Notes: generated from the sequence alone by a model not told the origin. A DNA stretch of 64,000 nucleotides from Burkholderiaceae bacterium (GCA_046348065.1 JAXMFA010000013.1:27407-91406), one strand, 5' to 3'; numbered from the stretch's first letter, positions 8,073 to 64,000 are shown. Program-made: numbers and translations.

Positions 8073-8179
8073 TACGGATTCGCCTTCAAACGTATAACTT
8101 CGTTGCTTCGCCTCGCCGTGCTACAGCACTGTCTTCGGCTTCGCGCCTTGTTCTACGCTTGAATGCAAACCCGTATGAG
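8071..8179 (+). repeat. R109 element copy 1 of 4 (109-bp element with imperfect terminal inverted repeats)
   Basis: gatacggattcgccttcaaacgta...gtgctacagcac...tacgcttgaatgcaaacccgtatgag. Near-identical copies at 31770, 36676 and 52798. Fills the gap between convergent genes and overlaps the TGA at 8070-8072. Confidence 0.9.
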
Positions 8180-26674: not shown

Positions 26675-26734
26675 ACCGACGGCGCCCGTCTCGTGCGGCT
26701 GATGCGCGTCAATCTGCACAGAAAGCCCGACCAA
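26675..26734 (+). pseudogene. remnant of a methyltransferase 3' end (diverged duplicate of 25902..25961)
   Basis: Translates as DGARLVRLMRVNLHRKPDQ versus DGAHFVRPMRVNLLRTRD* at the end of the intact gene. The stop is lost and there is no upstream coding body. Confidence 0.7.
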
Positions 26735-26754
26735 GGGCGTTTTCTCGCGTCAAT
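26735..26754 (+). repeat. R65 element copy f, left part (interrupted by IS30-family element)
   Basis: gggcgttttctcgcgtcaat aligns with the 5' part of copy e. Confidence 0.7.
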
Positions 26755-27811
26755 ATCTTGATTTCTAGTTCGAATCGCGACAGCGGCGACGCATGTCGGA
26801 TAGTACCTCTGCGGGGGTTTTGAAGCCCAGGCAGGCCCGAGGCCTGTGATTGAGCAGGTGTTCGATGCGGGCGATGCTTTGATGGGTCTGCAAGCTCAAA
26901 GGCTGACCCTTGGGGATGTACTGTCGGATCAGGCCGATGGTGTTCTCGTTGGTACCGCGTTGATTGGGTTGACGCGGATCGCAGACAAACAGGCGTGAGC
27001 CCAGCAAGGCTGGCAGGTGAGCGAACTCGCTGCCGCGGTCAACCGTGACGGTGTGCACCGGCCATGCGGCGTGCTGCAGCAAGGCACGGTTTGCCTGGTC
27101 AGCCATCGTGGCGGGCAAGGCATTGGGGGCCAGGCGCAGCCTGGTGAATCGGCTGGCGCGCTCCACGGCCACAAGCAGGCGCGGCTTGTAGAACCCGCGC
27201 AGCCCCACCATCGTGTCCATCTCCCAATGACCCAATTGCTCGCGCCGCAAGACATGATGTGGTCGCTCTCCGATGGGCCGTGCCTGAGCAGCCCATCCGC
27301 CACGACCCGCTTGCCGCTCGGCGCGGCGCAAAGGACGACGCTGACGAAGATGCCAATGGCGCTGGCACCAGGCGTAGATGGCTTGCCAGCTTGGGCAACA
27401 TTGTCCGCGCAGCCGTGCACGACCGGCAATCTGCTGCGGCGACCACTGGCTTTGCAGGCGCCGTCGCACGCGACGCCACAGGCGCGCCTCATGACGAGGT
27501 GCATTGGCGTTTGAGCGAGACGCGCAGGCCTTTCGATGAGCCTGTGCCTGCTTGGCACAGTACTGCGCAGGCGCGCAGCGCTTGAGTTCACGGTAAATGC
27601 TGCAGCGGTGGCGTCCCAGACGCCGGGCGATCTGATCGACTGAGAGCTGGCCGAGCAGCGTCTCAATCTGGTAGCGTTCGTGTTCGCTGAGATGGCATCG
27701 CATCACGGTCATTTCCTTTCAGTGTGGTAACTAAAAGGCTAGCCGCTCCTTGTCATCTCAGCCCTTCTTTCTGCGCCTGAGATCGTCGCGATTCGAACAA
27801 GAAACTAAGAT
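26755..27811 (-). mobile_element. IS30-family insertion sequence (about 1.06 kb) with 27-bp imperfect terminal inverted repeats
   Basis: Left end atcttgatttctagttcgaatcgcgac (26755-26781) versus the reverse complement of the right end, atcttagtttcttgttcgaatcgcgac (27785-27811). Single transposase ORF. Flanked by AT/ATAT. Confidence 0.88.
26765..27712 (-). CDS. IS30 family transposase
   Basis: N-terminal HTH (LSVDQIARRLGRHRCSIYRELKR), DDE region HWEMDT...TVDRGSEF...NENTIGLIRQY. Confidence 0.9.
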   Translation of the reverse strand: MTVMRCHLSEHERYQIETLLGQLSVDQIARRLGRHRCSIYRELKRCAPAQYCAKQAQAHRKACASRSNANAPRHEARLWRRVRRRLQSQWSPQQIAGRARLRGQCCPSWQAIYAWCQRHWHLRQRRPLRRAERQAGRGGWAAQARPIGERPHHVLRREQLGHWEMDTMVGLRGFYKPRLLVAVERASRFTRLRLAPNALPATMADQANRALLQHAAWPVHTVTVDRGSEFAHLPALLGSRLFVCDPRQPNQRGTNENTIGLIRQYIPKGQPLSLQTHQSIARIEHLLNHRPRACLGFKTPAEVLSDMRRRCRDSN

Positions 27812-27860
27812 ATGGCCGCTTTCGAGCGCCAGTCGGCCACGAGCCGCTATGAAAAAAGGA
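27812..27860 (+). repeat. R65 element copy f, right part
   Basis: atggccgctttcgagcgccagtcggccacgagccgctatgaaaaaagga. Shares the gctatgaaaaaagga variant with copy e. Confidence 0.75.
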
Positions 27861-27900
27861 CCGACCCGTCGCCAGGCCGGTCCTTGGTTTCTGCCCCGAA

Positions 27901-30394: not shown

Positions 30395-31771
30395 ATGCCC
30401 AAGACCCTGATCGAACCCTTCCGCATCAAGAGCATCGAACCCATCCGCATGACCAGCCGCGCCGAGCGTGAGCAGTTGCTGCAGGACGCGCACCTCAACG
30501 TCTTCAAGCTGCGCGCCGAGGACGTGCTGATCGACTGGCTCACCGACTCCGGCACCGGCGCCATGTCCAGCCGCCAGTGGGGCGCCATCATGGAAGGCGA
30601 CGAAAGCTACGCCGGGGCCCGCAGCTTCTACCGGCTGCAGGCCGTCGTGCAGCGCGTGACCGGCATGCAGCATTTCGTGCCCACCCACCAGGGCCGCGCG
30701 GCCGAGAAGGTGCTGTTCACCGCCGTCTGCAAGAAGGGCGACGTGGTGCCCAACAACTGCCACTTTGACACCACGCGCGCCAACCTCGAATACCTCGGCG
30801 TCGACGCCCGCGACCTGGTCATCGCCGAGGGCTTGCAGCCGGCGTTGGTCCATCCGTTCAAGGGCAACATCGACCTGGAGCGGGTGGAGGCGCTGCTGAA
30901 GGAGCACGGCGAGCGCATCCCCTTCGGCATGATCACCGTGACCAACAACACCGGCGGCGGCCAGCCGGTGTCGATGGCCAACATCCGCGCCTACGCGGCG
31001 CTGCTCAAGCGCCACGGCAAGCCCTTCATCATGGACGTGTGCCGCTTCTCGGAAAACGCCATGTTCATCAAGATGCGCGAGCCGGGCTACGAGAACACGC
31101 CGATCCGCGACATCGTGAAAGAAATGTTCAGCTACGCCGACGGCGCGACCATGAGCGCCAAGAAGGACGGCATGGTCAACATCGGTGGCTTCATCGTGCT
31201 GCGGGGCGAGCAGTGGATGGACGCGGTACGCAACGTGCTGATCCTCACCGAGGGCTTTCCCACCTACGGCGGCCTGGCCGGGCGCGACCTCGACGCGCTG
31301 GCGGTGGGGCTCGAAGAGGGCATGGACGAGGACTACCTGCGCTACCGCTTGCGCACCGCCGAATACCTGGGCGAGCGGCTCGAGGCGGCCGGCGTGGGCT
31401 TCGTGCGGCCCACGGGCGGCCACGCGGTGTACCTGGACGCGCGCACGGTGCTGCCCGACATGCCGGTGGCGCACTACCCGGCGTGGGCGCTGTGCAACGC
31501 GTTGTACCTGGAGGGCGGCATCCGCGGCGTCGAGATCGGCTCGGTGATGTTCGGCAAGCGCCTGCACGACGGCACCGAGACCTACCACAGCATGGAGCTG
31601 GTGCGCCTGGCGTTTCCGCGGCGCATGTACACGCAGAGCCACTTCGATTACGCGGCCGAGGTGATCGAGGAGGTCAAGCAGAAGGCCGCCCACATCCGCG
31701 GCGTGCGCATCACGAAGCAGCCGCCCTTCCTGCGGCACTTCACCTGCGAGTGCGCCTGGGTGGACGGCTGA
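30395..31771 (+). CDS. beta-eliminating lyase (tyrosine phenol-lyase / tryptophanase family)
   Basis: MPKTLIEPFRIKSIEP..., LTDSGTGAMS, GGQPVSMANIRA and SYADGATMSAKKDGMVNIGGF (PLP lysine region) closely follow recalled TPL/TnaA sequences. Confidence 0.88.
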   Translation: MPKTLIEPFRIKSIEPIRMTSRAEREQLLQDAHLNVFKLRAEDVLIDWLTDSGTGAMSSRQWGAIMEGDESYAGARSFYRLQAVVQRVTGMQHFVPTHQGRAAEKVLFTAVCKKGDVVPNNCHFDTTRANLEYLGVDARDLVIAEGLQPALVHPFKGNIDLERVEALLKEHGERIPFGMITVTNNTGGGQPVSMANIRAYAALLKRHGKPFIMDVCRFSENAMFIKMREPGYENTPIRDIVKEMFSYADGATMSAKKDGMVNIGGFIVLRGEQWMDAVRNVLILTEGFPTYGGLAGRDLDALAVGLEEGMDEDYLRYRLRTAEYLGERLEAAGVGFVRPTGGHAVYLDARTVLPDMPVAHYPAWALCNALYLEGGIRGVEIGSVMFGKRLHDGTETYHSMELVRLAFPRRMYTQSHFDYAAEVIEEVKQKAAHIRGVRITKQPPFLRHFTCECAWVDG

Positions 31772-31878
31772 TACGGATTCGCCTTCAAACGTATAACTTC
31801 GTTGCTTCGCCTCGCCGTGCTACAGCACTGTCTTCGGCTTCGCGCCTTGTTCTACGCTTGAATGCAAACCCGTATGAG
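31770..31878 (+). repeat. R109 element copy 2 of 4
   Basis: Identical to copy 1 over the positions compared by eye. Overlaps the lyase TGA stop (31769-31771). Fills the convergent intergenic gap. Confidence 0.9.
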
Positions 31879-35417: not shown

Positions 35418-36677
35418 GTGATCGACCAACCCCTGAAGCTGCCGTGCGGCCACACCCTGGCCAACCGCCTGTGCAAGGCGGCCATGACCGAAGGGCTGGC
35501 CGATGCGCACGACCATGCCACGCCCGCGCACCAGCGCCTGTACGCCACCTGGGCGCGCGGCGGTGCGGCGCTGCTGCTGAGCGGCAACATCATGGTGGAC
35601 CGGCGTTACCTCGAGCGCGCCGGCAACGTGGCGCTGGAGGACGGTGCGGACCTGGCATCGTTGCGGGCCTGGGCGCAGGTGGTGCGCGACGGCGGGTCGC
35701 AGCTGTGGGCTCAGATCAGCCATCCCGGCCGTCAGTGCCCGCGCCTGGTCAACGCGACGCCGCTGGCGCCATCGGTGGTGCAGCTGGAGCTGGCAGGCAA
35801 TTTCGGCCGGCCGCGCGCGGCCACCGAAGACGACATCCTCGACATCATCGGGCGCTTTGCCCGCACCGCCGCCTGGGTGCAGGAGGCGGGCATGGACGGT
35901 GTGCAGATCCATTCGGCACACGGCTATCTGCTGTCGCAGTTCCTGTCACCGCGCACCAACCGGCGGCAGGACCGCTGGGGCGGACCGTTGGAGAACCGCG
36001 CCCGGCTGCTGCTGGAGGTGGTGCGCGCGGTGCGCGCGCGGGTGGGGCCCGCGTATCCGGTGTCGGTGAAGCTCAATTCGTCGGATTTCGTGAAGGGCGG
36101 CTTCACGCTCGACGAGAGCCTGCAGGTGGTGCGCTGGCTCAACGACGAAAGTGTCGACCTGCTGGAGGTCTCCGGCGGCACCTACGAGCAGCTTGAATTC
36201 TTCAAGCCCCAGGCGGCGGCCGAACTGCGCGACAGCACCCGCGAGCGCGAGGCGATGTTCCTGCGCTATGCCAAGGCGATCAAGGCCGTGGCGCGCATGC
36301 CCATCATGGTGACCGGCGGCTTCCGCACCTTGGCCGGCATGCAGGCGGCGCTGGCCGGCGGTCACACCGACATGATCGGCCTGGCCCGGCCGTTCTGTCT
36401 GGACCCGGATTTTCCGGCGCGTTTGATGGCCGGCCAGCTGCAGCGGCTGCCGGTGCCGGAAGACCGGCTGGTGCTCGGAACCGGCTGGTGGGGCCCGAAC
36501 AGCCCGTCGGCGGTGGTGCGCGGCCTGAACAACCTGGCGCAGGGCGGCTGGTACGACCACCAGATCGAGCGGCTGGCCGTGGGCGCTGCGCCCGAGCCGG
36601 GCCTGGGCCCCTGGGACACGATGCTGGCGCACTTCGGCAAGGACCTGGGCCGCGCATTGCGGCGCAAGTTCGCCTGA
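35418..36677 (+). CDS. NADH:flavin oxidoreductase (Old Yellow Enzyme / 2,4-dienoyl-CoA reductase N-terminal type)
   Basis: GTG at 35418. LANRLCKAAMTEG, DGVQIHSAHGYLLSQFLSP, RWGGPLENRARL. Confidence 0.85.
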   Translation: MIDQPLKLPCGHTLANRLCKAAMTEGLADAHDHATPAHQRLYATWARGGAALLLSGNIMVDRRYLERAGNVALEDGADLASLRAWAQVVRDGGSQLWAQISHPGRQCPRLVNATPLAPSVVQLELAGNFGRPRAATEDDILDIIGRFARTAAWVQEAGMDGVQIHSAHGYLLSQFLSPRTNRRQDRWGGPLENRARLLLEVVRAVRARVGPAYPVSVKLNSSDFVKGGFTLDESLQVVRWLNDESVDLLEVSGGTYEQLEFFKPQAAAELRDSTREREAMFLRYAKAIKAVARMPIMVTGGFRTLAGMQAALAGGHTDMIGLARPFCLDPDFPARLMAGQLQRLPVPEDRLVLGTGWWGPNSPSAVVRGLNNLAQGGWYDHQIERLAVGAAPEPGLGPWDTMLAHFGKDLGRALRRKFA

Positions 36678-36784
36678 AACGGATTCGCCTTCAAACGTAT
36701 GACTTCGTTGCTTCGCCTCGCCGTGCTGCAGCACTGTCTTCGGCTTTGCGCCTTGTTCTACGCTTGAATGCAAACCCGTATGAA
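36676..36784 (+). repeat. R109 element copy 3 of 4 (variant)
   Basis: gaaacggattcgccttcaaacgtatgac...gtgctgcagcac...cccgtatgaa. A few substitutions relative to copies 1, 2 and 4. Overlaps the OYE TGA stop. Confidence 0.88.
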
Positions 36785-46988: not shown

Positions 46989-47123
46989 CGACAGCTCCTT
47001 GTGGGTGATGGAACGATCATTCTAGGCTGGAGTCCGACCGCTTCCTGATTCGCTCTGGAAGCCGGGACCGTGACAGGGTCTGCCCGGGTACACACGCACC
47101 ACCGCCGGGCCTATTCTGGCCAC

Positions 47124-47825
47124 ATGGGTTTCTCGCGCCTGTTCCCGAACCGACCCGGCCACCAGTCAACCGAGGCTGACACGGTGGTGGTGATCGATGT
47201 GCTGCGCTCGTTCACCACGGCGGCGGTGGCGCTGCACCGGGGCGCGGCCGCGGTCTATCCGGTTGACGACCCTGCCGCGGCGCGCGAAGCCTGCGGGCGC
47301 ATCGACCGCGCCGTTTCGGTGGGGGCTTTCGCTGGCGGGGCACCGGTGCCGGGTTTCGACTTTGGCAACTCGCCGTCCGCCTTGGCGCGGGCGGATCTCA
47401 CGGGCCGCCCTGTGGTGATCAGCACCGCCGCGGGCGTGCGCGGCCTGCACCGGTTTCGGCGCGCGCGGCGGGTTTTCGCGGCCAGCCTGGTGTGTGCGGC
47501 GGCGACCGCCGAAGCCATCCGCCGCTCGGGCGCCGATGAGGTGTGCTTCGTCATCACCGGCGAATGGCACGACCGCGACGGCGACGAGGACATCGCGTGC
47601 GCCGACTACATCGAGGCGCTGCTTCGCGGCCACGCGCCGAATCCCGACCGCTTTGCCCGGCGCGTGCGCGAGTCCGATTTCGGCCTGCGCTTTGCCGCCG
47701 CGACCTCGCCCGACCTGCCGGCCGACGACCTGGCCATCGGTGCCGACGTCGATCGCTTCGGCTTCGCGATGCCAGTGGGGGAAGAAGCGGGCGATCTGGT
47801 GATCCGGCCCGTCACACCGCCCTGA
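47124..47825 (+). CDS. 2-phosphosulfolactate phosphatase (ComB) family protein
   Basis: ATG at 47124. VVVIDVLRSFTTAAVAL and DEDIACADYIEALL resemble the ComB family. Confidence 0.7.
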   Translation: MGFSRLFPNRPGHQSTEADTVVVIDVLRSFTTAAVALHRGAAAVYPVDDPAAAREACGRIDRAVSVGAFAGGAPVPGFDFGNSPSALARADLTGRPVVISTAAGVRGLHRFRRARRVFAASLVCAAATAEAIRRSGADEVCFVITGEWHDRDGDEDIACADYIEALLRGHAPNPDRFARRVRESDFGLRFAAATSPDLPADDLAIGADVDRFGFAMPVGEEAGDLVIRPVTPP

Positions 47826-47838
47826 AAGGGGCCTGGAA

Positions 47839-47906
47839 GGGCGTTTTCGAGGTGTTATTGGCCTCTTTCCAGCGTCGGATGGCCACGGGCCGCTATCAGA
47901 TCAGGA
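47839..47906 (+). repeat. R65 dispersed intergenic element, copy i
   Basis: gggcgttttcgaggtgttattggcctctttccagcgtcggatggccacgggccgctatcagatcaggag. Its 3' end contains the stop (47901-47903) of the minus-strand kinase gene. Confidence 0.8.
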
Positions 47907-51873: not shown

Positions 51874-52791
51874 ATGCCCATGGCGTTGATCCAGCCGCCC
51901 CGATTGCTGCCCGTGCTGGCGGCGACGGTCGGGCTGTTTCGCCATCGACGCTCGGGGCTGAACGATCCGGCGGCGTTGCCGCGCATCGAGCGTTCGCTGG
52001 CGGGTGCCACGCTGGACGCCGACTGGCTCGCGGCTTACCGCGCCAGCGTGGGCTTGCCGGTGGAGCCGGCACTGCCGCCGCTGGCGCTGCAGATCGCGGC
52101 CGCGCCGCTGCACATGGCCATCCTGGGCGATCCGCGCTTTCCGTTTCGGGCCCTGGGCCTGGTGCACCTCACGCAGCGCATCACGCAGACCGCGCCGATG
52201 CCGGCGGACGCGCGCTTCGAACTGCGCGCCTTCTGCGCCGACGGGCGCTGGGAAAAGCGGGGCATGAGCTTTGGCCTGGTGACCGAGGCCATCGTCGAAG
52301 GCGCGCGGGTCTGGCGGGGCGAGACCCGTGCGCTGGCACCGGGCAAGACACAGGCGCTGGTGTCGGCATCGGCGGATTCCTCCGTGGCGGCCGAAGAACC
52401 GGCGGGCGTTTGCGGGTGCGACCAGGTGCTGTCGGTCGCGGAATCCACTGGCCGCCGCTATGCCGCCATCGCGGGCGACCTGAACCCGATCCACCAGCAC
52501 GCGCTGCTGGCGCGCCTGTTCGGCTTTCGGCGCGCGATCGTGCACGGCACCTGGACGCTGGCCCGCGCCCTCGCCGTGGCGGGGCTGCCGGATGCCCCGG
52601 CGTTCACACTGGACGCACGCTTCCGCCGGCCGGTGGAACTGCCGTCCGACATCCGGGTGCGCGCGTGGAGCGGTGCACCCGCTGGCCCCGGCCTGCCGCC
52701 CGGCGGGGCGCACCGGGTGTGGGTGAGTTCGCAGTCCAGCGGCAAGCTCTGCCTGGATATCGACCTGCAGGCATCCCCGGCCGCGTCCTGA
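51874..52791 (+). CDS. MaoC-like (hot-dog fold) dehydratase domain protein
   Basis: YAAIAGDLNPIHQHALLARLFGFRRAIVHGTW hydratase motif in the C-terminal half. Confidence 0.75.
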   Translation: MPMALIQPPRLLPVLAATVGLFRHRRSGLNDPAALPRIERSLAGATLDADWLAAYRASVGLPVEPALPPLALQIAAAPLHMAILGDPRFPFRALGLVHLTQRITQTAPMPADARFELRAFCADGRWEKRGMSFGLVTEAIVEGARVWRGETRALAPGKTQALVSASADSSVAAEEPAGVCGCDQVLSVAESTGRRYAAIAGDLNPIHQHALLARLFGFRRAIVHGTWTLARALAVAGLPDAPAFTLDARFRRPVELPSDIRVRAWSGAPAGPGLPPGGAHRVWVSSQSSGKLCLDIDLQASPAAS

Positions 52792-52797
52792 GCCGCT

Positions 52798-52906
52798 CAT
52801 ACGGATTCGCCTTCAAACGTATAACTTCGTTGCTTCGCCTCGCCGTGCTACAGCACTGTCTTCGGCTTCGCGCCTTGTTCTACGCTTGAATGCAAACCCG
52901 TATCAG
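52798..52906 (+). repeat. R109 element copy 4 of 4
   Basis: catacggattcgcc...cccgtatcag. The terminal tca (52903-52905) is the stop codon of the minus-strand M23 gene. Confidence 0.9.
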
Positions 52907-53931
52907 TTGGCGGGCGCTTCGGCCGCGATGTTCAGCGAGAACGCCTGGCTGAACACCCGCTGGCCCGCGTTGGTGACCTGGTACTCCGCGCGGTAGGTTC
53001 CGGCCGGCCAGGGGGCGGACGCCCGTTTGCGCCCGATCAGGCTCAGGCTCTGCGCCTGGGCCCGCTCCAGGGCCGGCTGTTGGCGTTCGGCGATCACGGT
53101 GCCGTCCGGCGCGCGCAAGGTCAGCCGTGCGGCATCGCCGGGCTCCAGGCCGATCATGCGCACCCAGGCCACCAGCGCGGAGCTCTGCCCGTTGGGCCTC
53201 CCCGCGTCGGGTGGCAGGTTCTCGACCTCGGCCATCGTGAGCGCCCGGTCGCTGAAGCCGTGGTTCAGCAGCACACGGCGGCGGTACGCCAGCGCCTGGG
53301 CGGTCGCCGCATCCCACAGCGTCTGGCCGGACCCGCAGGCGCCGGCCACCGGCGCGGGCGCGAACGGGTCGACCGCCTTGCCCTGGCGGCGGATCGTCAG
53401 GTGCAGGTGCGGGAATTCGGTCAGGCCCGACAGGCCGACCAGCCCGAGCCGCTCGCCGGCGCGCACCGTCTGGCCGCGCCGCACCGCGACGCTGCCCTGG
53501 GCCAGATGGCAGTACTGTGTCTCCCAGCCATCGGCGTGGCGCAGCACCAGGCCGTTGCCGCATTCGCGGTTCTTGACGGCTTCCTTGCCGGTCTCGCGGA
53601 TCGACACGTCGGTCATGCCGTCGCGCACACCAGCGACCACGCCGTCGGCGGCCGCCAGCACCGCCACGCCCGCGCGCACCGCTGCCATCGAGGGCACGCG
53701 AAAATCGGTGCCGTCGTGCCCGTCGTACGTGCGCGCGCCGCAGGCGTAGTCGCGCCAGGCCGGCGACGGATCGTGGTCGACATAGTTCTGCACGAAACAG
53801 CTGGCGCCGGGTACACAGTCGATGGGCAAGGCAAAACGCGGCCCCTGCGCCCCCTCGTTCGCCAGGGCCGCCGGCATCCCGCCCAGGAGCGCCCAGGCCA
53901 GGAAAAACGGTGCAAAACGGCTAGAAATCAT
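52903..53931 (-). CDS. M23 family metallopeptidase, secreted
   Basis: Signal peptide, HDGTDF (HxxxD) and FPHLHLTI (HxH) zinc motifs. Confidence 0.85.
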   Translation of the reverse strand: MISSRFAPFFLAWALLGGMPAALANEGAQGPRFALPIDCVPGASCFVQNYVDHDPSPAWRDYACGARTYDGHDGTDFRVPSMAAVRAGVAVLAAADGVVAGVRDGMTDVSIRETGKEAVKNRECGNGLVLRHADGWETQYCHLAQGSVAVRRGQTVRAGERLGLVGLSGLTEFPHLHLTIRRQGKAVDPFAPAPVAGACGSGQTLWDAATAQALAYRRRVLLNHGFSDRALTMAEVENLPPDAGRPNGQSSALVAWVRMIGLEPGDAARLTLRAPDGTVIAERQQPALERAQAQSLSLIGRKRASAPWPAGTYRAEYQVTNAGQRVFSQAFSLNIAAEAPAN

Positions 53932-53997
53932 GGTTTTTCAGCATGAAATATGGCTCTTTCCAGCGTCGGACGGCCACGACATGCTATCAATTCAGGA
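53929..53997 (+). repeat. R65 dispersed intergenic element, copy j (left flank of CRISPR-Cas cassette)
   Basis: catggtttttcagcatgaaatatggctctttccagcgtcggacggccacgacatgctatcaattcagga. Shares the cgacatgctatca-ttcagga variant only with copy k. Confidence 0.8.
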
Positions 53998-54216
53998 TTT
54001 TCTGTGACGACCGACGGCTCATTTTCACCCTGTTGACTGAGGCATCGATGCCCGTCCGGGCCGACAACCCGACAGGCGATGATGAAATCCTCCGGTATTC
54101 AAGTCTCAATAACGCCGCGACTCGCCGTCCCAAGGCAAGCCGAGTTCGCGGCTCGCCGATTTCCGGGCGCCGAACTGACAATAATGAATGTCCTGTCACA
54201 CCCCCACGGAGGCCCC

Positions 54217-55368
54217 ATGGCGAACACCGATTTGTACGAATCCCTCTTGTCCGCAGCCGAGCATGCATCGGCCATCACCTTGCGGGCCAACCTGATCCCG
54301 GCTAATGCCGTCGCCGGCGATGAAAAGTTCTTTGTGCTGCCTCCGACCTATGCCGAGGTTGGCCATCTGGCATCGCACATCCGGGAAGACGGAACGCACG
54401 AGTACATCCTGATCGACTCGCCGCAAAGCTGGGCCAACCGGCTCGAAGAATTGCTCGACCGCCCCGAGGTTGGCGTGGCGCCCATCCGGGTGCAGGCAGC
54501 GGGCCACACGCTGAGCATCAACCAGTTGCCGCACCGGGTGTTCGATGCCCTGCTGCGAGACTCCGAACTCGACGGCAAGGCGTTTCGCGAAACCGCCCTG
54601 GGACAGTCACTGACGCAGGCCCGCGCCGACAACGCGACCGCTTTGTTGCAAAGCGCGCCGGGCACGCTGCTGTTCGGCGCCTGGGACAGCTTTGCAGGCG
54701 CTCGCATGGGCGCTGCCAAATGGCCGGCGGCGCTGTCGGGGCAGATCATGGGTTTTGACGCCCTGCAGACCAAAAAGGCGGGCATCCGGATGGACCCGCT
54801 CAACATTGCCAAAGACGCCGTGACGGGCTTCAAGTCGGAAAGCCGGGCCGAGAGCTGGACCACCGACGAAACCCATGCCGTGAAAGACCCGAAAGGCAAC
54901 CCCGTACCCGTGGGCAAGGCGTCGGAAATCGGGCATGGCCACATCCTCGCGGAACTGGCCACCAAGGGGGCCTGGGTCAGCCGGATCGAACTACGCTCGT
55001 CGCTGTCGCTGACCCGCTTGCGCCGCTACCACTTTCCGGTCAATGGCCAGCCGAGCGAAGCCGCCGACCTGGCGGCGCGCACCTACCTGGCGGCCCTGGC
55101 CCTTTGGCTGATGCACACCCGCATGATGGCCGGGCTGGAACTGCGGGCCGGCGCTGAACTCGACGCGACCGAAGCCACCTTCCTGGTGCGAAAGCCGCTG
55201 GAGGGCGATGTGGCCCTGTCACTTTCAGGCGACGCGGTGGCGCAGGCCCTGGCCAAGGCCATCGCAAAGGCCCGCGAGGCTGGCTTCACGTTTGCCGGCC
55301 CCACCGTGTTTGCCGCGTCGGCCCGGCTCACCCGGCTCATCGAAACCAGCGAAGCCCTGAACCAATGA
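54217..55368 (+). CDS. csb1: type I-U/I-G CRISPR-associated Cas7-like protein (Csb1-like)
   Basis: ATG at 54217 with GGAGG RBS. LLFGAWDSFAGARMGAAKWPAALSGQIMG resembles the Csb1/Cas7u core. Position is immediately upstream of, and translationally coupled (ATGA) to, csb2. Confidence 0.7.
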   Translation: MANTDLYESLLSAAEHASAITLRANLIPANAVAGDEKFFVLPPTYAEVGHLASHIREDGTHEYILIDSPQSWANRLEELLDRPEVGVAPIRVQAAGHTLSINQLPHRVFDALLRDSELDGKAFRETALGQSLTQARADNATALLQSAPGTLLFGAWDSFAGARMGAAKWPAALSGQIMGFDALQTKKAGIRMDPLNIAKDAVTGFKSESRAESWTTDETHAVKDPKGNPVPVGKASEIGHGHILAELATKGAWVSRIELRSSLSLTRLRRYHFPVNGQPSEAADLAARTYLAALALWLMHTRMMAGLELRAGAELDATEATFLVRKPLEGDVALSLSGDAVAQALAKAIAKAREAGFTFAGPTVFAASARLTRLIETSEALNQ

Positions 55369-56645
55369 AGCTCACCGTCGAGTTTCTGGGCCTGTACGGC
55401 GCGGCCGATGTGGCGTCACGTGCTCAGGTGGAATGGCCCCCGCACCCGGACCGGCTCTACCAGGCACTGGTCGATGCCGCGCTGCCCGAAGACCGCCCAG
55501 CCCTGGCCTGGATCGAAGAACAGGGCCCGCCCGACGTGGACTGCGGCGACAGCGTCGCGCTGCACTGGGGGCGCAAGGGCAAGGTCTTTGTGCCCACCAA
55601 CTACCCCAGCGACACCTTGCCGGCCCTGCGCAAGAACCAGGAGCGGCAGTTCCCCATGGCCTTGCCGGACGGCCCCGTGCGCTATGTCTGGGCGGCAGAC
55701 CCGCCCAAGCCCGTCTACGAATGCATTCGCCGCTCGGTGGGGCGGGTCACACACCTGGGGCGCGCCGACTCGCTGGTGATGGCCGCGCTGGAGCCGGGCG
55801 CGTCCGCGTGCCGCTGGACCGCACGCGACGACGGGACGCTGACGATGCGCGTGCCATTTCGCGGGCGGTTGCGGCAACTGGATGCCGCGTTTGAAAGCCA
55901 ACAGCGCAGCGCCCTGGCGCCGGCCGTACGGTATGGCAACTCGGCCGAGCGCGCGCAACAGGGCCCGTGGGAAGGGTTGATCGTGATGCGCGTGGCCAAA
56001 CCCGTTGCAGTGGAACATGTGGCCCAAGCCACCGATGCGCTGCGCCGGGCGGTGCTGTCGCGTCTGGGGGACGACGCCCCGCTGCTGGCGCATGGCCATG
56101 CCCAGGCCATGCATCTCGCCTGGCTGGGTTTGCCCAATCTCAGCGACTACGGCGACGGCACGATTCTGGGTCTGGCGATGGCGGTGCCTCGTGACTGTTA
56201 CAGCCTGGAGCGTGCCCGCTGCGTGGGGGCGATGCTCTCGGTGGACCACATCATGCTGGCCGGCTTGCGGATCAACCTGACCCGGCCGAACGCAGCGATG
56301 TCCTTGCACGAACGCACCTGGAGCCGCCCCAGCCGTTGCTGGGCGTCGGCCACGCCGCTGGTGCTGGACCGCTTTCCCAAGGGCAAGCTCACGGCCGAAG
56401 AGATCGTGGCCCAGGGTTGCGAGCGTGCCGGCTACCCCCGGCCCAGCCGGGTGGCACTCGCGCAGGTCAGCGCCCTGCCCATGCCGCCAGCGCGGCAGTT
56501 CCGCCTTCGCAAGCCGGGCAGTCTGTACGCTCACGCCACGCTGGAATTCGATCAACCGGTGCAGGGGCCGTTGCTGGTGGGCAAAGAGCGGTACTTTGGC
56601 CTGGGCCTTTTTCTGCCCCACGATGCGCGAGCCCCGAGTGACTGA
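55365..56645 (+). CDS. csb2: type I-U/I-G CRISPR-associated Cas5/Cas6-fusion-like protein (Csb2-like)
   Basis: N-terminus MKLTVEFLGLYGAADVASRAQVEWPPHPDRLYQALVDAAL matches the recalled Csb2 signature (EWPPSPxRLFQALV). C-terminus FGLGLFLP is typical of RAMP G-rich loops. Confidence 0.8.
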   Translation: MKLTVEFLGLYGAADVASRAQVEWPPHPDRLYQALVDAALPEDRPALAWIEEQGPPDVDCGDSVALHWGRKGKVFVPTNYPSDTLPALRKNQERQFPMALPDGPVRYVWAADPPKPVYECIRRSVGRVTHLGRADSLVMAALEPGASACRWTARDDGTLTMRVPFRGRLRQLDAAFESQQRSALAPAVRYGNSAERAQQGPWEGLIVMRVAKPVAVEHVAQATDALRRAVLSRLGDDAPLLAHGHAQAMHLAWLGLPNLSDYGDGTILGLAMAVPRDCYSLERARCVGAMLSVDHIMLAGLRINLTRPNAAMSLHERTWSRPSRCWASATPLVLDRFPKGKLTAEEIVAQGCERAGYPRPSRVALAQVSALPMPPARQFRLRKPGSLYAHATLEFDQPVQGPLLVGKERYFGLGLFLPHDARAPSD

Positions 56646-56780
56646 CGAAAGCCCCGGAGGTTCGCGCACGGTGTTTGCAAACGCGCCCGGTTAGGGGCCG
56701 CTGACTTCTTCATCGGAGGTGGACGGTTCGCGCCAAGTCGGGATGAAATGAAGCTGTGAGAAGGGCTTGGCGGCGATGAG
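56646..56780 (+). promoter_or_regulatory. putative CRISPR leader
   Basis: 135-nt non-coding stretch upstream of the best-conserved repeats. Degenerate repeats lie at the opposite end. Confidence 0.4.
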
Positions 56781-57397
56781 CTTGATTCCCGGTTATGGAC
56801 CGGGCTACGTTGAAGGGGCGCCAATGGCGGCACCATCGTGGGCCTGAGCGACGGTTGATTCCCGGTTATGGGCCGGGCTACGTTGAAGGGAGTCGTGACA
56901 CCCTGCGGAATCGACGGCGCCCGAGCTTGATTCCCGGTTATGGACCGGGCTACGTTGAAGGGCTGACGATTCCGCCAAAGACGGCGCATGGGGCAGGCTT
57001 GATTCCCGGTTGTGGACCGGGCCACGTTGAAGGGAGGTCAAGCGCGACTACACCCTGACCGAGCAGCACGGTTTATTCCCGGTTATGGGCCGGGCTACGT
57101 TGAAGGAACCCAGGCGACCCCCTGTTGGTGGACACTGGCGTGCTTGATTCCCGGTTGTGGGCCGGGCTACGTTGAAGGATGGACCGCTATGGCGATCAGT
57201 CGTTGCTGGTTCACGGTTAATTCCCGGTTATCGGCCGGGCTACGTTGAAGATCGAAACGGCAGTCGGTGACGACAAAGCGCGTGCGCGGTTGATTCCCGG
57301 TCTTTGACTGGGCTACGTTGAAGGAAGCACGGCTCCATGACCGACGGCGCCGAGACGTATGGTTGATTCCCGGTCATTGACCGGGCTGGGTTTGGCG
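56781..57397 (+). CRISPR. CRISPR array: 9 repeats of 36 nt (last two degenerate), 8 spacers of 36-37 nt
   Basis: Repeats start at 56781, 56854, 56926, 56998, 57071, 57143, 57216, 57289 and 57362. Consensus is sttgattcccggttatggrccgggctacgttgaagg with a 6-bp hairpin (cccggt/accggg) and a gttgaagg 3' end. Confidence 0.92.
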
Positions 57398-57477
57398 GCA
57401 ACATCTGGCGCGATGGGTACGCTTGCCGTCAATGCACCGCTATGCTGCGAAGGCGGGACAACAAGGGATGGACTGGC

Positions 57478-59772
57478 ATGGAAAAAAAGATCTTTTCGGC
57501 GTTCTATGAGTCATTGCACGGGTATGCCCCGTTCCCCTGGCAGATTGAGCTGGCCCGGCGCGTGGCCGACGGTCGCTGGCCCGATGCGCTGAACCTGCCC
57601 ACCTCGTCGGGCAAGACGGCGGTGGTCGATGTGTGGTTGTGGGCACATGCGATGGGCGTGCTGGGCGCGCCCCGGCGCCTCTACTACGTGATCGACCGTC
57701 GCTTGCTGGTGGATGCGGTGGCCGACTACGCGCAGGCGCTGTTTGCCCGCAGCGGGGTTGTGGGGCAGGTGGTGCGTCTGCGTGGCGGACTGGGCGCCAA
57801 AGACGATGCGTGGATGTTGAACCCGGCGGGCCTGACGCTCGTGAGCACCACGCTGGATCAATTGGGCTCGCGCCTGTTGTGTCGCGCCTACGGGGCGAGC
57901 CGGTGGGCGGCCCCCGTGCACGCGGGGCTCGCGGGCAACGATGCGCTGATCGTGATCGACGAAGCGCACCTGGTGGAGCCGTTTCGGCAGACGCTGCACC
58001 GCATCGGGCGTTACCGACAACGGGCAGTCGAGCCGCTGGCCAGCCCCTGGCACCTGGTGACCATGACAGCAACCCCGCTGGGCGATGCGACCGATGTGTT
58101 GGCCCTATCGGACGAGGACCGGGCCCACCCGGTGCTGAGCCGGCGCCTGAACGCGGCCAAGCTCACGCGGCTGGTGAACGGCAAGCAGGACGACCTGACG
58201 AGCGAGGCTCTGCGCCTGCGCGCGGGCGGCGCCTCGGTGGTGGGGGTGGTGGTGAATACCGTGGACACCGCGCGTCGGGTGCATCGAACCCTTTCGGCGC
58301 AAGGTGACTGTCTGCTGATCATTGGCAGGGCCCGTCCGCTGGAGCGGGATGTGTTGGGTCAGGAGGTGATGCAGCGCGCCGGCAGTGGGACCCGCAGCGC
58401 CGGGCGAACGCCCTTGTTCGTGGTGGCCACGCAGACGATTGAGGTGGGGTTGGACCTCGACTTTGATGCGCTGGTTTCGGAGCTGGCGCCCGTCAGCGCG
58501 CTGCGGCAGCGGCTGGGGCGGCTGGATCGCCTGGGTGAACTGGGCGCCAGCGCGGCCAGTATCGTGAAAGTGCCCGCTGCCCGCTGGCCCTATGCGAAGG
58601 GGCTGCTGGACGATGCGTGGGGCTGGCTGGAGTCGGCGGCAGAGAAATCGCGCCAGTTGGGCAAGGTGGTGAACCTGGGCATTGCCGCACAGGTGCCGGC
58701 CCCGCCCGAGCCGGCGCTGCGGTCCGTCGTGCTGGGCCTGCCCGACCTGCCCGTACTGTTCGACCCGGCGGTGGACCTCGACATTACGCCCTACCTGCAC
58801 GGCGAAAAACGTTCGACCGAAGTGTTCGTGGCGTGGCGTCGTGCGCTGGACGAGACGCCGCCCGAAGAATGGGGTGACGCCATCGAATCAGACCCGCCGT
58901 CGGCGCTGGAACTGATGCCGATGCCGCTGCACACGCTGCGTCGCTGGCTGCAGGGCGAATCCAGCCAAGCGTCGGACCTGGAAAGCACGGCAGTGCCGGA
59001 TGATGAACCGGCTCGCCACGAACGCATCGCGCAGGTGCTGTGCTGGGACGGTGAGGCGGCCGAGCTGGTGAGCCCAGCTGCGCTGCGCCTCACCGACGTG
59101 GTGGTGCTGCCCGCGTCCATCGGTGGGTGCGACCGCTTTGGCTGGAACCCAGCCAGCAAGGCGCCCGTACGCGATCTGTTTGCCGACGGCCTGATTCAGA
59201 AACCGGGCTGGACCGGCAGCAACGAGCGCACCCGGTGGGCGATTGGGCTGGCTGAGCACATGGCGGGTGTGGGCGCCAAGGCGCTTGCGCTGGCGACAGC
59301 CTGCGGACTGCCTGACGGGCTGGGCCGCGCGCTGGACGAGGCTGGACGCCTTCACGACCTGGGGAAGAACGACCCGCGCTTTCAGCTGATGCTGGGGGCG
59401 TATGGTGGCCCCTTGCTGGCCAAGAGCGGGAGCCATGAAGTGACGGTGTCGAGAAAGCTCGCGGGCTTGCCACGTGGTTGGCGGCATGAGCTGGCCTCGG
59501 TGGCGCAGCGCATCGACATCGACCCCCTGGTGCTGTACTTGGTGGGTTCACACCACGGGCGCGGCCGCCCCTGGATGCCCGCTGCCGCCGACCCCCGGCT
59601 GTGGCGCCAGGCGAGGGGCGCAGAGTGGCCGGCCCTGGCCAGCGCGATGCGCGACCGCTTCGGATTCTGGGGGCTGTGCTACCTCGAAGCGGTCTTGCGC
59701 CTGGCCGATTGGGCGCGCAGTGCTGAAGAACAGGACGAGGCCCAAACTGTGGAGGATGGCCATGCCGCTTGA
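57478..59772 (+). CDS. cas3: type I-U/I-G style Cas3 helicase-nuclease (helicase N-terminal, HD domain C-terminal)
   Basis: ATG at 57478. PFPWQIELA, PTSSGKT (Walker A), VIDEAHL (DEAH), QTIEVGLDLDFD. C-terminal HD motifs HDLGKNDPRF and GSHHGRGRP. Confidence 0.88.
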   Translation: MEKKIFSAFYESLHGYAPFPWQIELARRVADGRWPDALNLPTSSGKTAVVDVWLWAHAMGVLGAPRRLYYVIDRRLLVDAVADYAQALFARSGVVGQVVRLRGGLGAKDDAWMLNPAGLTLVSTTLDQLGSRLLCRAYGASRWAAPVHAGLAGNDALIVIDEAHLVEPFRQTLHRIGRYRQRAVEPLASPWHLVTMTATPLGDATDVLALSDEDRAHPVLSRRLNAAKLTRLVNGKQDDLTSEALRLRAGGASVVGVVVNTVDTARRVHRTLSAQGDCLLIIGRARPLERDVLGQEVMQRAGSGTRSAGRTPLFVVATQTIEVGLDLDFDALVSELAPVSALRQRLGRLDRLGELGASAASIVKVPAARWPYAKGLLDDAWGWLESAAEKSRQLGKVVNLGIAAQVPAPPEPALRSVVLGLPDLPVLFDPAVDLDITPYLHGEKRSTEVFVAWRRALDETPPEEWGDAIESDPPSALELMPMPLHTLRRWLQGESSQASDLESTAVPDDEPARHERIAQVLCWDGEAAELVSPAALRLTDVVVLPASIGGCDRFGWNPASKAPVRDLFADGLIQKPGWTGSNERTRWAIGLAEHMAGVGAKALALATACGLPDGLGRALDEAGRLHDLGKNDPRFQLMLGAYGGPLLAKSGSHEVTVSRKLAGLPRGWRHELASVAQRIDIDPLVLYLVGSHHGRGRPWMPAAADPRLWRQARGAEWPALASAMRDRFGFWGLCYLEAVLRLADWARSAEEQDEAQTVEDGHAA

Positions 59773-60595
59773 GTTGAACCCGATGCAGGGACATGTGCCG
59801 GTGGGTTTCATGGCGGCCGTCGGGCTGCTGCGCGTTGCGCCCCAAGGTGCGCGCCTGAGCTGGAACCCGACCAGCCAGACGGCCGAGTTGCACGGTGTGG
59901 AGCGTGAGGCGATCCTGGACCACCTGGTGGCCCACATGGCGGGACGGCATCAGTCGCCCGAGCTGCAGATTGCGGACGACGTGCGCAAGTTCGATGTCGA
60001 GGCGTTCCGGGCGCAGTACGATGCGGCCGATGAATCGTTGGCCGAGTGGCTGAGGGCCTGGTGGCGCGAAGACGGCAAGGATGGCAAGGCCGAGACGACC
60101 GACCTCTGTTTGACCGGCGGTCCGCAGCGCATGATCAAGATGGCCCGGGAACTGGCGCAAGACCTGGACCCGACTCGCAAGAAGGGTGCGGAAAAGGCGG
60201 TGCGCGCGAAGTTCGAGGAGGCTTTGTTTGGCCCCTGGCGATATGCGGATGCCCGCGCCAGCTGGGGGTGGGACCCGGCAACCTATCGCCCCGGTGCGCT
60301 GACCAGCGACGCCCCAACATCGATGAAGTTGGCGGGGGTGGCGGGCGCGTACTGGCTGGCTTGGGAATCGCAGCCGCTGTTTCCATGCCTGCACGGGCAG
60401 GGAACCCTGGGGTTTGAGCACCGGCCCCGGGCGTGGACCTGGCCCACCTGGGCCGAGCCGCTGGACATTCACGCGGTACCGGCACTGTTGCGGCAGCCCC
60501 AGGAGGCGCCGGCACTGGGTGGCAAACGTTACCGATCAGGCATTGTGTTTGCCGGGCAGATTCAGTGGTTTGAGCCGGGGATGGTGGTAGGGTAG
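59762..60595 (+). CDS. uncharacterised CRISPR-associated protein, 277 aa, translationally coupled to cas3 (possibly the Cas3-extension / small Cas8u-like family)
   Basis: ATG at 59762 overlaps the cas3 stop (ATGCCGCTTGA). Trp-rich (WGWDPATYRPG, AYWLAWES, WTWPTWAEP). No motif I can assign with certainty. Confidence 0.55.
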   Translation: MPLELNPMQGHVPVGFMAAVGLLRVAPQGARLSWNPTSQTAELHGVEREAILDHLVAHMAGRHQSPELQIADDVRKFDVEAFRAQYDAADESLAEWLRAWWREDGKDGKAETTDLCLTGGPQRMIKMARELAQDLDPTRKKGAEKAVRAKFEEALFGPWRYADARASWGWDPATYRPGALTSDAPTSMKLAGVAGAYWLAWESQPLFPCLHGQGTLGFEHRPRAWTWPTWAEPLDIHAVPALLRQPQEAPALGGKRYRSGIVFAGQIQWFEPGMVVG

Positions 60596-60599
60596 GTCA

Positions 60600-60703
60600 A
60601 ATCGACCACAGAACGGGGTGAAACGGCCAAAAAGCATGGGTTTTTGGGCCTGAATCGGGCGATACCCAAGGCCAAATGGCCACGACATGCTATCAGTTCA
60701 GGA
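60600..60703 (+). repeat. direct duplicate of 53895..53997: remnant of the M23 gene 5' end plus R65 element copy k (right flank of CRISPR-Cas cassette)
   Basis: The reverse complement of 60600-60637 reads ATGCTTTTTGGCCGTTTCACCCCGTTC (MLFGRFTPF) versus the M23 start MISSRFAPF. It is followed by catgggtttttgggcc...ggccacgacatgctatcagttcagga. Confidence 0.75.
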
Positions 60704-60750
60704 GCGTCAAGAATCCGGACCGATGGCGCGACCGATGCCGGCCCCGCCCT

Positions 60751-62343
60751 TCACGCCCGGGTCTTGGTTGCCGTGCCAGCCTTGCGGGCGGGGGCTGGCT
60801 TGGCGGCAGGCTTGCGCGAAGGCCTGACCCCGGCTTTCGGGGCCGGTGCCTTCGTGGCGGCAGCCTTGACCACAGGTGCCTTGGGCGCAGCGGCCTTTCG
60901 GGCGGGTGATTTTGTGGCCGCGGGCTGTCTGACCGGCGCTTTGGCTTTGGCGGGGGTTCTGGCCATGGTTTTGGCGGGTGCCTTGCGGGCCGCCGGTCGG
61001 GCTTTCGGGCCGGCCGGCTTGACCGTGGACTTCAGCATCTTGCGGAACTCGCTGTTGAACGCGTCGGTGATGAGCTCGGGGTCGGGCACCAGGTGCGCGT
61101 CGCCGATCACGGTCAGCCCGGCCAGACCTTTGTAGCTGAAGATGCTCACCGCCATGCCCAGTTCCTTGCCGGGGTGCGGTGCCCAGGCCAGCATGCGTTC
61201 GATCGGCACGCCGGCCAGGTACAGCTCTTCGCGCGGGCCGGTGACGTTGGTCATCACCAGGCTGGCCTTGCGGCCGAACAGGTTGTTGGAGAAGTCCTCC
61301 AGCGCCTTGGGCATGCGGCCCATCAGGTCGAGCAGGGCGCGCGTGGCCAGCGGTTCGGGCGAGTGCTTGAGCGCGTCCATGCGGGCCTTGGTCAGCGCGA
61401 TGCGGTGGTCGGCGCGCGCCTTGGTCACGGCGAGATCGAGCAGCACCAGGCCGAACTCGTTCCCGAGCTGTCCCATGCGCTCGGGCGGGCGCAGGTCCAC
61501 CGGCACCATGGCGCGCAGCGTGGTGTGGTCGACGTCGACGCCGCGGCCCTTGAGGTAGGTGCGCAGCGCGCCGGTCATCGCGGCCACCAGCACGTCGTTG
61601 ACCTTGGCGTCGTGGCGCAGGCCGATCGCCTTGATATCGGCGATGGGGAAGGGCACCGACCAGGCCACGCGCTTGGCCGGCGCGAACTTGCCCTTGAGCG
61701 GCGAAGGCGGGTCGTCCTTGCGCAGCAACTCGCCGACCAGCATGCCGGCGCCGCCGACCAGCGCCACCGCATCACGCGCGGCCCCGGCGACGGCGTTGAA
61801 CGCCGGTGCCAGCAGACCCTTCTCGGCGTGCGCGATGCTCTTGCCGCGCGCCTTCGGGCCTTGCAGGGGCGGCGCGCCGGGTGCCGGGTCGTAGAGGCGC
61901 TGGAGCAGGATCATCATCGCCGTGCCGTCGGCGATGCAATGGTGGCAGCGCATGATGAGCGCGCTGCCGCCTTCGACGTCGTCGACGACCCAGGTCTGCC
62001 ACAGCGGCAGCGAGTGGTCCAGCGGGGCGCTGGCGATGTCGTTGACCAGCTCCATCAGCGCCGCCTGGGTGTGGGGCGCGGGCAGGGCGATGTGGTGCAG
62101 GTGCTGGTTGATGTCGAAGTCGGGCATGTCCTGCCAGTGCGGCGTGGGCAGCGGAAAGCCGGTCTCGACCACGCGTTGGCGGAAGCGCTCGAAGGTGACC
62201 AGGCGCTCGCTGTAGACCTGGCGCACCCTTTCGAAGTCCAGGGGCTTGCGCGTCAGCGTCACGCCCATGATGACGGCCAGGTTGGCAGGCCCGTCGTTGT
62301 GGAACCAGGAGGCGTCGGCGGCCGACATGGGGTAGGTTTTCAT
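60751..62343 (-). CDS. WS/DGAT family acyltransferase, paralogue 4, with about 90-aa Lys/Ala/Pro-rich tail
   Basis: ATG at 62343 (MKTYPMSAADASWFHNDGPANL). HHCIADGTAM (HHxxxDG). Tail is KARPAARKAPAKTMARTPAKAKAPVRQPAATKSPARKAAAPKAPVVKAAATKAPAPKAG... Confidence 0.88.
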   Translation of the reverse strand: MKTYPMSAADASWFHNDGPANLAVIMGVTLTRKPLDFERVRQVYSERLVTFERFRQRVVETGFPLPTPHWQDMPDFDINQHLHHIALPAPHTQAALMELVNDIASAPLDHSLPLWQTWVVDDVEGGSALIMRCHHCIADGTAMMILLQRLYDPAPGAPPLQGPKARGKSIAHAEKGLLAPAFNAVAGAARDAVALVGGAGMLVGELLRKDDPPSPLKGKFAPAKRVAWSVPFPIADIKAIGLRHDAKVNDVLVAAMTGALRTYLKGRGVDVDHTTLRAMVPVDLRPPERMGQLGNEFGLVLLDLAVTKARADHRIALTKARMDALKHSPEPLATRALLDLMGRMPKALEDFSNNLFGRKASLVMTNVTGPREELYLAGVPIERMLAWAPHPGKELGMAVSIFSYKGLAGLTVIGDAHLVPDPELITDAFNSEFRKMLKSTVKPAGPKARPAARKAPAKTMARTPAKAKAPVRQPAATKSPARKAAAPKAPVVKAAATKAPAPKAGVRPSRKPAAKPAPARKAGTATKTRA

Positions 62344-62560
62344 GGTGTGTCTCGTTCCGTGTCCCGCCGTGCCCTTCGCTCCGGCAGGGCGGGTGCTGCC
62401 GGGCGGATGTGTCACTGACGATGCTAGTGCGCGGGCCGGCGCGCGCATTGACGGCGGTCAAGGTCCCGGTGGTGACCGGGGGCGGGCGGCGCGATCGACT
62501 ACAGTGCCGGCTGATCCGCCCCAGCAGCGCTTGTCGCACCGTTGCACCGCCCGCTCCGCC

Positions 62561-64000
<1,440 letters not shown>

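Follow-up and report, generated by a model that had tools for sequence, protein, structure and literature searches.

Foreign DNA can come to lie beside a conserved anchor gene without a recombinase of its own, through a Campbell-type crossover or homology-facilitated illegitimate recombination, leaving a displaced remnant of a gene end. In canonical type I-G CRISPR-Cas systems, the large subunit is Csx17 (Cas8g), and the adaptation genes are a cas4-cas1 fusion and cas2. Type I-G, formerly I-U, is exemplified by Geobacter sulfurreducens and Thioalkalivibrio (10.1101/2022.08.08.503147). Homology-facilitated illegitimate recombination was reviewed in the context of conjugation (PMC3240628) and was invoked for displaced effector remnants of the type VI secretion system in Vibrio cholerae (PMC5361080). 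Among integrated elements, e14 in icd leaves a 163-bp icd' pseudogene, Rac is located at the 5' end of ttcA, and N-terminal variation of TtcA was reported at the Rac site (PMC6379469). Here, a stretch of 64,000 nt from Burkholderiaceae bacterium (GCA_046348065.1 JAXMFA010000013.1:27407-91406; the window, with positions counted from its first letter) was analyzed. It carries a 6.6-kb type I-G CRISPR-Cas module between two housekeeping genes, an M23 family metallopeptidase gene and a wax ester synthase/diacylglycerol acyltransferase (WS/DGAT) gene, bracketed by two diverged copies of a segment that comprises the start of the M23 gene and a dispersed intergenic element, R65. The source is a wastewater lineage of the Comamonadaceae, a family abundant in wastewater microbiomes, and its nearest named relative is Candidatus Skiveiella danica.

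The CRISPR-Cas Module Is Bracketed by an Imperfect Direct Repeat

The left flank is formed by the intact M23 gene (52903..53931, minus strand; 342 aa; Pfam PF01551, 2.2e-19), whose product starts with MISSRFAPF. The left copy of the repeat (copy j; 53906..53997, plus strand) comprises M23 codons 1-9 (53906-53931) and R65 up to its 3' edge, ...TTCAGGA. The right copy (copy k; 60612..60703, plus strand) comprises an M23 5'-end remnant and an R65 element. Over 92 nt, the two copies have the same orientation and an ungapped identity of 71%. Their local alignment score was 30, compared with 7.0 ± 1.0 for shuffled sequences, and none of 1000 shuffles scored as well. A preliminary description of this DNA, made from the sequence alone, had proposed that the cassette is bracketed by a direct duplication, and this was borne out. 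The bounds given there, 53895 and 60600, enclose a real repeat, but its significant part begins at about 53906 and 60612. Likewise, the right copy was said to follow the last cassette gene directly; it is adjacent, but a junction of 16 nt (60596..60611, read from the sequence) separates the stop codon of that gene from the repeat. This junction shows no terminal inverted repeat pairing to the left end.

The remnant in copy k has its ATG at 60637-60635 on the minus strand and reads MLFGRFTPF, as had been described. Since a stop codon follows after 33 codons, it is not a gene, and the concern that it might be part of a real one was removed. It is in register with the M23 starts of the two relatives L092 and L095, and it has GGGGTGAAACGG (codons RFTPF) in common with L092. 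The best-conserved block of the repeat (25 of 26 positions) is the end distal to the gene. This 26-nt block, GGCCACGACATGCTATCA(A/G)TTCAGGA, was found solely at 53972-53997 and 60678-60703 with up to three mismatches allowed, at a chance expectation of 0.00. The variant CATGCTATCA had been called private to the two copies; the 26-nt block is indeed unique to j and k, but the R65 copy at 4692 has TTTCATGCTATCAG.

Since R65 recurs about every 6 kb, it could be argued that any 6.6-kb segment would be bracketed by two copies and that the M23 remnant is a chance resemblance. The spacing of R65 in the window (1.8-7.4 kb, mean 5.6 kb) does make the distance of 6706 nt between j and k a typical one. 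However, over the 45 nt that adjoin the R65 core on its left side, j and k agree at 67% of positions, whereas neither exceeds 49% identity to any other R65 copy of the window, so that their likeness goes beyond that of the dispersed element. The uniqueness of the 26-nt block, the register of k with the M23 starts of L092 and L095, and the presence of one copy rather than two at the empty site described below also speak against coincidence, which is extremely improbable and already refuted by these statistics.

Each copy is invariant across all contigs of the window's population that carry the exact M23 protein and are long enough, and no intermediate alleles were present among these contigs.

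A Closely Related Contig Carries the Empty Site

Relatives were gathered by scanning genomes and metagenomes once each with the M23 gene as the anchor, which yielded 174 loci. The closest relative, L095, is a wastewater contig from ENA with the M23 gene, one R65, a spacer of 116 nt and the WS/DGAT gene, and with no cassette. Thus, the empty site that had been predicted (M23, one R65, WS/DGAT) is present. The body of the M23 gene is 97-100% identical between the window and L095, dropping to 77-80% from about 53890, and window positions 60725-64000 are 96.4% identical. Copy j is orthologous to the single copy of L095 (74% over 94 nt). As the flanks of the filled and the empty allele are only a few percent apart, each junction can be followed at single-base resolution. 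To the right of k, a residual native spacer (60704..60750) precedes the stop codon of the WS/DGAT gene (60751..62448, minus strand; TIGR02946, 4.9e-105), and its final 26 nt match L095 at 25 of 26 positions. On this side, the spacer is about 95 nt longer in L095 than in the window.

Candidatus Skiveiella danica (L001, Comamonadaceae) is syntenic on both sides at about 82% nucleotide identity. Between its M23 and WS/DGAT genes lie one R65 and a gene for a short-chain dehydrogenase/reductase (SDR) of 301 aa, and no cas genes. The same SDR arrangement without cas genes was found in L096, L093, L091, L098 and L099. Since these six distant syntenic relatives, L001 included, carry the SDR gene and no cas genes, the cassette is the derived state. 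Searches with tblastn and blastn for leftover pieces of the SDR gene, both in the window and in the L095 spacer, found none. Every contig of the population with the exact M23 protein and sufficient length has the cassette, which is absent from all other syntenic relatives; the case that all relatives carry it, raised in the preliminary description as an objection, does not apply. A truncated M23 protein (P0007) was considered as an alternative junction, and its contig, L179, just carries the same cassette. The R65 orthologs at this locus in L095 and L001 also have the A-ATGCTA signature, which therefore marks the locus and not the j/k pair.

The cassette might instead be older, with the empty site of L095 arising secondarily by recombination between j-like and k-like repeats; these would then be signs of an unstable site prone to loss and not of a recent gain. 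Direct repeats with a block of 25/26 identity could support such a deletion, and the L095 copy is about equally like j and k, matching each in different patches. Yet this pattern of sites would need several switches between j-like and k-like sequence, and the roughly 95 nt of L095 spacer missing from the window would not be restored by a deletion between j and k. Moreover, the six relatives with the SDR gene have no cas genes either. Secondary loss is thus considered very unlikely.

The Module Is an Interference-Only Variant of Type I-G

All elements of the insert are oriented on the plus strand, in the order cas7g, cas5/6g, array, cas3g and short cas8g. Gene cas7g (csb1; 54217..55368, 383 aa) matches TIGR02570 (8e-21; 74.6 bits, cut-off 38), PF09617 (2e-35) and the PADLOC model Cas7g; an alternative ATG is present at 54079, and the population contigs call the gene as 383 aa. 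The cas5/6g fusion (csb2; 55365..56645, 426 aa) matches TIGR02165 (1e-66; 226 bits, cut-off 45) and PADLOC Cas56g (1.8e-112). The helicase-nuclease gene cas3g (57478..59772, 764 aa) matches TIGR02621 (644.5 bits, cut-off 400) and PADLOC Cas3g (7e-201), and its C-terminal HD domain (cas3_HD) lies at residues 603-713 of an open reading frame (ORF) of 776 aa. The last gene of the cassette (59762..60595) encodes a short Cas8g-like large subunit of 277 aa that matches short-form models alone, namely NF049934 of NCBIfam, named type I-G Cas3-extension family (8.6e-42; 143.8 bits, cut-off 65), and PADLOC PDLC01514 Cas8g (1.7e-41). For this protein, neither a Pfam match (E up to 0.01) nor a match among solved structures was obtained.

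The array (56780..57395, plus strand) has nine repeats of about 37 nt and eight spacers of 37-38 nt at a period of 72-73 nt, with the leader side to the left and a degenerate final repeat. It lies within the operon, and its repeat is related to the repeats of two cassette relatives, L175 and L176.

The module thus agrees with type I-G in its Cas3g with C-terminal HD domain, its Cas7g (Csb1) and its Cas5/6 fusion (Csb2), all above curated cut-offs. It differs in that the array is located between cas5/6g and cas3g, that the large subunit is the short 277-aa form instead of Csx17, and that cas4-cas1 and cas2 are missing. These adaptation genes were found neither in 53998-60611 nor among the genes called within 10 kb on either side on population contigs. 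Contig L087 of the same population carries the same eight spacers and, on their leader side, three additional ones. The gain of these spacers by a cassette that lacks cas1, cas2 and cas4 suggests that the population continues to acquire spacers and that the adaptation proteins may be encoded at another place in the genome.

The content of the insert is four cas genes and the array; profile searches, PADLOC and the called genes revealed no integrase, transposase or tns genes in it. A transposon origin, including a CRISPR-associated Tn7-like one, was rejected because the best inverted match of the ends is a 7-mer at chance level (TTCTGTG...CACAGAA; 1161 of 2000 shuffles as good). The flanking repeat of 92 nt also stands against the short target-site duplications of transposons.

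The Module Was Acquired from Outside the Lineage

The cas genes have a GC content at third codon positions (GC3) of 0.80-0.83, compared with 0.85-0.90 in the flanking genes; a comparison of composition had been proposed as a check. The best Cas3g match from outside is 82% identical, and many matches at 70-76% come from Comamonadaceae, including sources labelled Polaromonas and Rhodoferax. In collections of plasmids and phages, no near relative of Cas3g was found; the best plasmid match was 37% identical and there was no phage match. The order csb1, csb2, array, cas3g and short cas8g is kept in L175 and L176, and the same layout is found in relatives with 72-82% Cas3 identity. Because it recurs in this way, the layout is an established variant and not a local degradation or rearrangement; the adaptation-less type I-G layout with internal array travels as a unit among Comamonadaceae.

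In L175 (JGI 3300014051), the module is part of an island of 16.6 kb that is integrated where the tmRNA gene has its 3' end (L175 340-775 and 17341-17403). This island carries an integrase, AlpA and a Mob_Pre relaxase and has flanking att repeats of 63 nt that are 87% identical. In L176, the module sits between toxin-antitoxin pairs. The genomes of L175 and L176 contain no R65. The window and the L175 island have in common the four cas genes with internal array, at 76% nucleotide identity across the cas genes, and imperfect flanking direct repeats. They differ in that the island has the integrase, AlpA, the relaxase and about 6 kb more cargo, and in that its flanking repeats consist of the tmRNA gene's 3' end and not of R65. 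The empty site, the GC3 and the mobile-island and toxin-antitoxin neighbourhoods of the nearest homologues agree with the earlier proposal of horizontal acquisition, which is well supported. The module is of foreign origin, it is flanked by the repeat where a relative has the empty site, and the insert holds no mobility genes.

At its left end, homology of the cassette to L175, L176 and L178 begins at 54179 (blastn). It is preceded by a junction segment of 181 nt (53998..54178, plus strand) between j and the first recognisable cassette homology, without a blastn match to these three relatives. All that this segment has in common with the L095 spacer is an 11-mer, GGCATCGATGC, which is a palindrome (p about 0.02). 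Gapped alignments of the segment to the L095 spacer or to the sequence after k were insignificant (237 and 455 of 2000 shuffles as good, respectively), so that, on this basis, the insertion point cannot be moved into the spacer. Scans for promoters and terminators at both junctions found nothing.

The L175 island raises the possibility that the window once held a larger integrase island, whose attP carried a surrogate M23 5' end, comparable to e14 in icd and Rac in ttcA, and of which all but the CRISPR module was later deleted. The closest cassette relative is, after all, cargo of an integrase island with imperfect att repeats, and such elements classically leave a reconstituted gene, with the displaced piece of the gene end on the opposite side of the insert (PMC6379469). 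With e14 and Rac, the locus shares the intact target gene, an imperfect direct repeat that takes in the end of a gene, a defunct remnant across the insert and a variable protein terminus; the three unrelated M23 N-termini described below resemble the TtcA variation at the Rac site (PMC6379469). It differs by the absence of an integrase in or beside the insert and by a bare four-gene cas operon with tight junctions. No integrase fragment was found either, and just 181 nt separate j from cassette homology, and 16 nt the cassette from k. Furthermore, the 25/26 block is distal to the gene, whereas the crossover core of a surrogate 5' end would be expected proximal to it. A second insert of 644 nt in the window, and possibly an insert of about 1.5 kb with an Old Yellow Enzyme (OYE) reductase in L182, are likewise bracketed by R65 without integrases. 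Because the integrase-free second insert shows the same layout, three separately decayed integrase islands are argued against. A decayed island is therefore considered quite unlikely.

Copies j and k Resemble Two Diverged Alleles of One Segment

Copies j and k were compared with the single-copy alleles of L095 and L092. The latter, a short contig, encodes an M23 protein with 84% identity to that of the window, and comparison with its allele is limited to the 60 nt covered. Over 94 nt, identities were 69% for j and k, 74% for j and L095, and 70% for k and L095. Over the 60 nt common with L092, j and k were the least similar pair (62%). In this part, j was 67% identical to both L095 and L092, k was 63% identical to L095 and 72% to L092, to which its coding remnant and R65-left part are nearest, and L095 and L092 were 77% identical to each other; the differences between pairs are not individually significant. 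Overall, j and k showed 63-82% identity to the single-copy alleles of L095 and L092, and no allele exceeded 82% to either. The signal-peptide region of the M23 gene (window 53842-53931) occurs in three unrelated versions among otherwise syntenic relatives (L001; L096, L093 and L091; L095 and L092), and the nucleotide homology of the window to L001 and L096 ends abruptly at 53842.

Judged from these alignments, j and k look like two diverged alleles of one hypervariable segment rather than like sisters. Since the identity between them (62-71%) does not exceed that to the L095 and L092 alleles, the joining of two alleles fits. The reading we favor, with a probability of about one half, is that recombination joined a resident and an incoming diverged allele of the M23-start/R65 segment, either by a Campbell-type crossover or by one-ended homology. 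The recombination route, and which of the two copies is the resident one, are what we infer.

On this reading, a ready-made, interference-only type I-G module would have entered the lineage from outside. It would have been integrated directly at the 3' edge of R65 upstream of the M23 gene, without use of an integrase or transposase carried by the insert. In this way, two diverged alleles of the 92-nt segment (M23 codons 1-9 and R65) would have been joined, with the j allele staying on the intact M23 gene and the k allele left as a dead 5' remnant with R65 beside the WS/DGAT gene. The likeliest route would be RecA-type recombination with DNA of a related strain that already bore the module beside its own M23/R65. 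This may have occurred as a Campbell-type single crossover of a circular intermediate. Alternatively, a homologous crossover inside the M23 gene may have been combined with an illegitimate joint at resident codon 9-10 (homology-facilitated illegitimate recombination), which would give the same product from linear DNA. Both routes require a donor with the module next to its own M23/R65.

Several observations weigh against the joining of two alleles. In a limited sample, the 174 M23-anchored loci that do not belong to the population of the window are all devoid of cas genes, and none of the cassette relatives examined, again a limited sample, has a nearby M23 gene or R65. With an L095-like recipient, about 98% identity to the L095 copy would be predicted for either j or k, and both show 70-74% (94 nt). 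The substitutions common to j, k and L095 do not yield a clean two-part chimera. At another locus, R65 orthologs have diverged by about 40%, compared with about 10% for the genes beside them; because R65 outpaces its flanking genes, a duplication made in place could have decayed to 71%. Finally, the comparisons over 60-94 nt rest on few sites. The diverged copies do look like two alleles, as the Campbell-type integration of the preliminary description would have it, but four routes would look alike here: a single crossover, one-ended homology with an illegitimate joint, template switching during replication, and the action of an integrase in trans.

In its outcome, the event is of a known kind: an islet gained by horizontal transfer, with imperfect direct repeats on both sides that contain the remnant of a displaced gene end. 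With homology-driven islets it shares the insertion at an anchor gene without its own recombinase, the displaced end of a resident gene and the two diverged alleles. It differs in that the anchor is about 92 nt long or lies within the M23 gene and contains a dispersed R65, and in that the crossover points cannot be mapped, as neither copy closely matches a sampled single-copy allele. The insertion is clearly marked, yet it is not a new kind of event. The locus is a clean natural example of a chromosome that gained a complete CRISPR-Cas interference module without a mobility gene of its own.

R65 Is Evenly Spaced and Flanks a Second Insert

With a profile built from ten copies, 11 copies of R65 were found in the window, at about 4692, 10537, 14562, 19530, 25983, 27813, 33722, 41098, 47859, 53950 and 60656 (span 4647-60708). 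All 11 are on the plus strand regardless of the direction of the neighbouring genes, and the relatives mostly show the same. Their spacing of about 6 kb is even (coefficient of variation 0.28), and just 8 of 20,000 random draws of 11 out of 29 intergenic gaps were as regular. R65 has no Rfam match, and folding of the consensus gave three predicted pairs, with no covariation and no conserved fold. Integron gene cassettes with attC sites were rejected as an explanation, since R65 lacks a conserved secondary structure; IntI was not looked for. A sigma-54 reading (-24/-12) of GGCCACG...GC in R65 was also discarded, as the spacing, checked by eye, is one base short. Directly to the left of the R65 copy at 47859, a gene resembling 2-phosphosulfolactate phosphatase (47070-47825) is present in the window's population and missing from the syntenic L091, a further case of differing gene content next to R65.

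A second duplication was found in the window. The segment 25903-26031, with the last 59 nt of a methyltransferase gene, a terminator and R65, recurs at 26676-26755 and 27815-27861 with about 83-86% identity. The two copies flank the 644-nt insert (26.0-26.7 kb), which contains an ORF of 157 aa with a signal-peptide-like start and many Cys residues, and no recombinase gene. The second R65 copy is split between its T-run and its core by an IS30-family element (26756-27814) with a transposase ORF of 315 aa (26765-27712, minus strand) and inverted repeats of about 29 bp. At the methyltransferase junction of L182 (methyltransferase 97% identical), the OYE reductase lies between a partial and a full R65, and the full R65 is preceded by sequence like the 3' end of the window's methyltransferase gene. 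In L180, this junction has a katG neighbourhood. L183 was considered as a clean, unfilled counterpart of the second duplication and rejected, as three other genes and just a degenerate R65 are present there. Both cases in the window have an intact gene to the left, an insert that starts at the 3' edge of R65, and a gene remnant with R65 to the right.

The preliminary description had suggested that spacers with R65 serve as landing pads. The second example in the window is in line with this, but for the CRISPR cassette the homology is locus-specific and not that of R65 in general: because the repeat includes locus-specific M23 codons, generic homology between R65 copies did not guide the CRISPR insertion. 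In a broader form of the proposal, which builds on the uniform orientation and even spacing of R65, foreign DNA would preferentially enter chromosomes of this Comamonadaceae group at the 3' edge of the element. This would be a landing pad at which R65 and 30-60 nt of the left gene are duplicated with no recombinase encoded by the insert; we regard this as quite unlikely. Similarly unlikely are its parts, namely that the pad is serviced by a recombinase in trans or is a break or recombination hotspot tied to replication, and that the CRISPR cassette, the 644-nt insert with its 157-aa ORF and possibly the OYE reductase insert of L182 are three products of one process. If it is true that R65 edges are recurrent entry points, they would represent an undescribed insertion mechanism or hotspot in this family.

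The common layout of the two duplications also bears on a replicative origin. Here, a fork or break at the R65 3' edge would have been followed by copying of foreign DNA through template switching, resembling microhomology-mediated break-induced replication. Synthesis would then have resumed about 92 nt upstream on the original template, so that the M23 start and R65 were duplicated at insertion and diverged fast thereafter. In both duplications, the left copy stops at the R65 3' edge (...CAGGA and ...AAGGAC) with the insert directly after it, and neither insert holds a recombinase gene. The common orientation and even spacing of R65 are what a link to replication might produce, and identities of 71% and about 84% could reflect age, since R65 evolves much faster than its flanks. 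However, j and k are not sisters, as each resembles single-copy alleles from other lineages no less than it resembles its partner. L095 differs by 0-3% in the M23 body and yet lacks the cassette, so the duplication would be young although its copies look old. An origin by template switching is considered unlikely, and the joining of a resident and an incoming allele is preferred.

A MITE-Like Element Recurs in the Window

An element of 105 nt resembling a miniature inverted-repeat transposable element (MITE) occurs four times in the window. Its terminal inverted repeats measure about 23 bp, and its copies are 93-97% identical (8063-8179, 31762-31878, 36668-36784 and 52790-52906). The MITE-like copy at 52800-52902, located between a MaoC-like gene and the M23 gene, is missing in L095.

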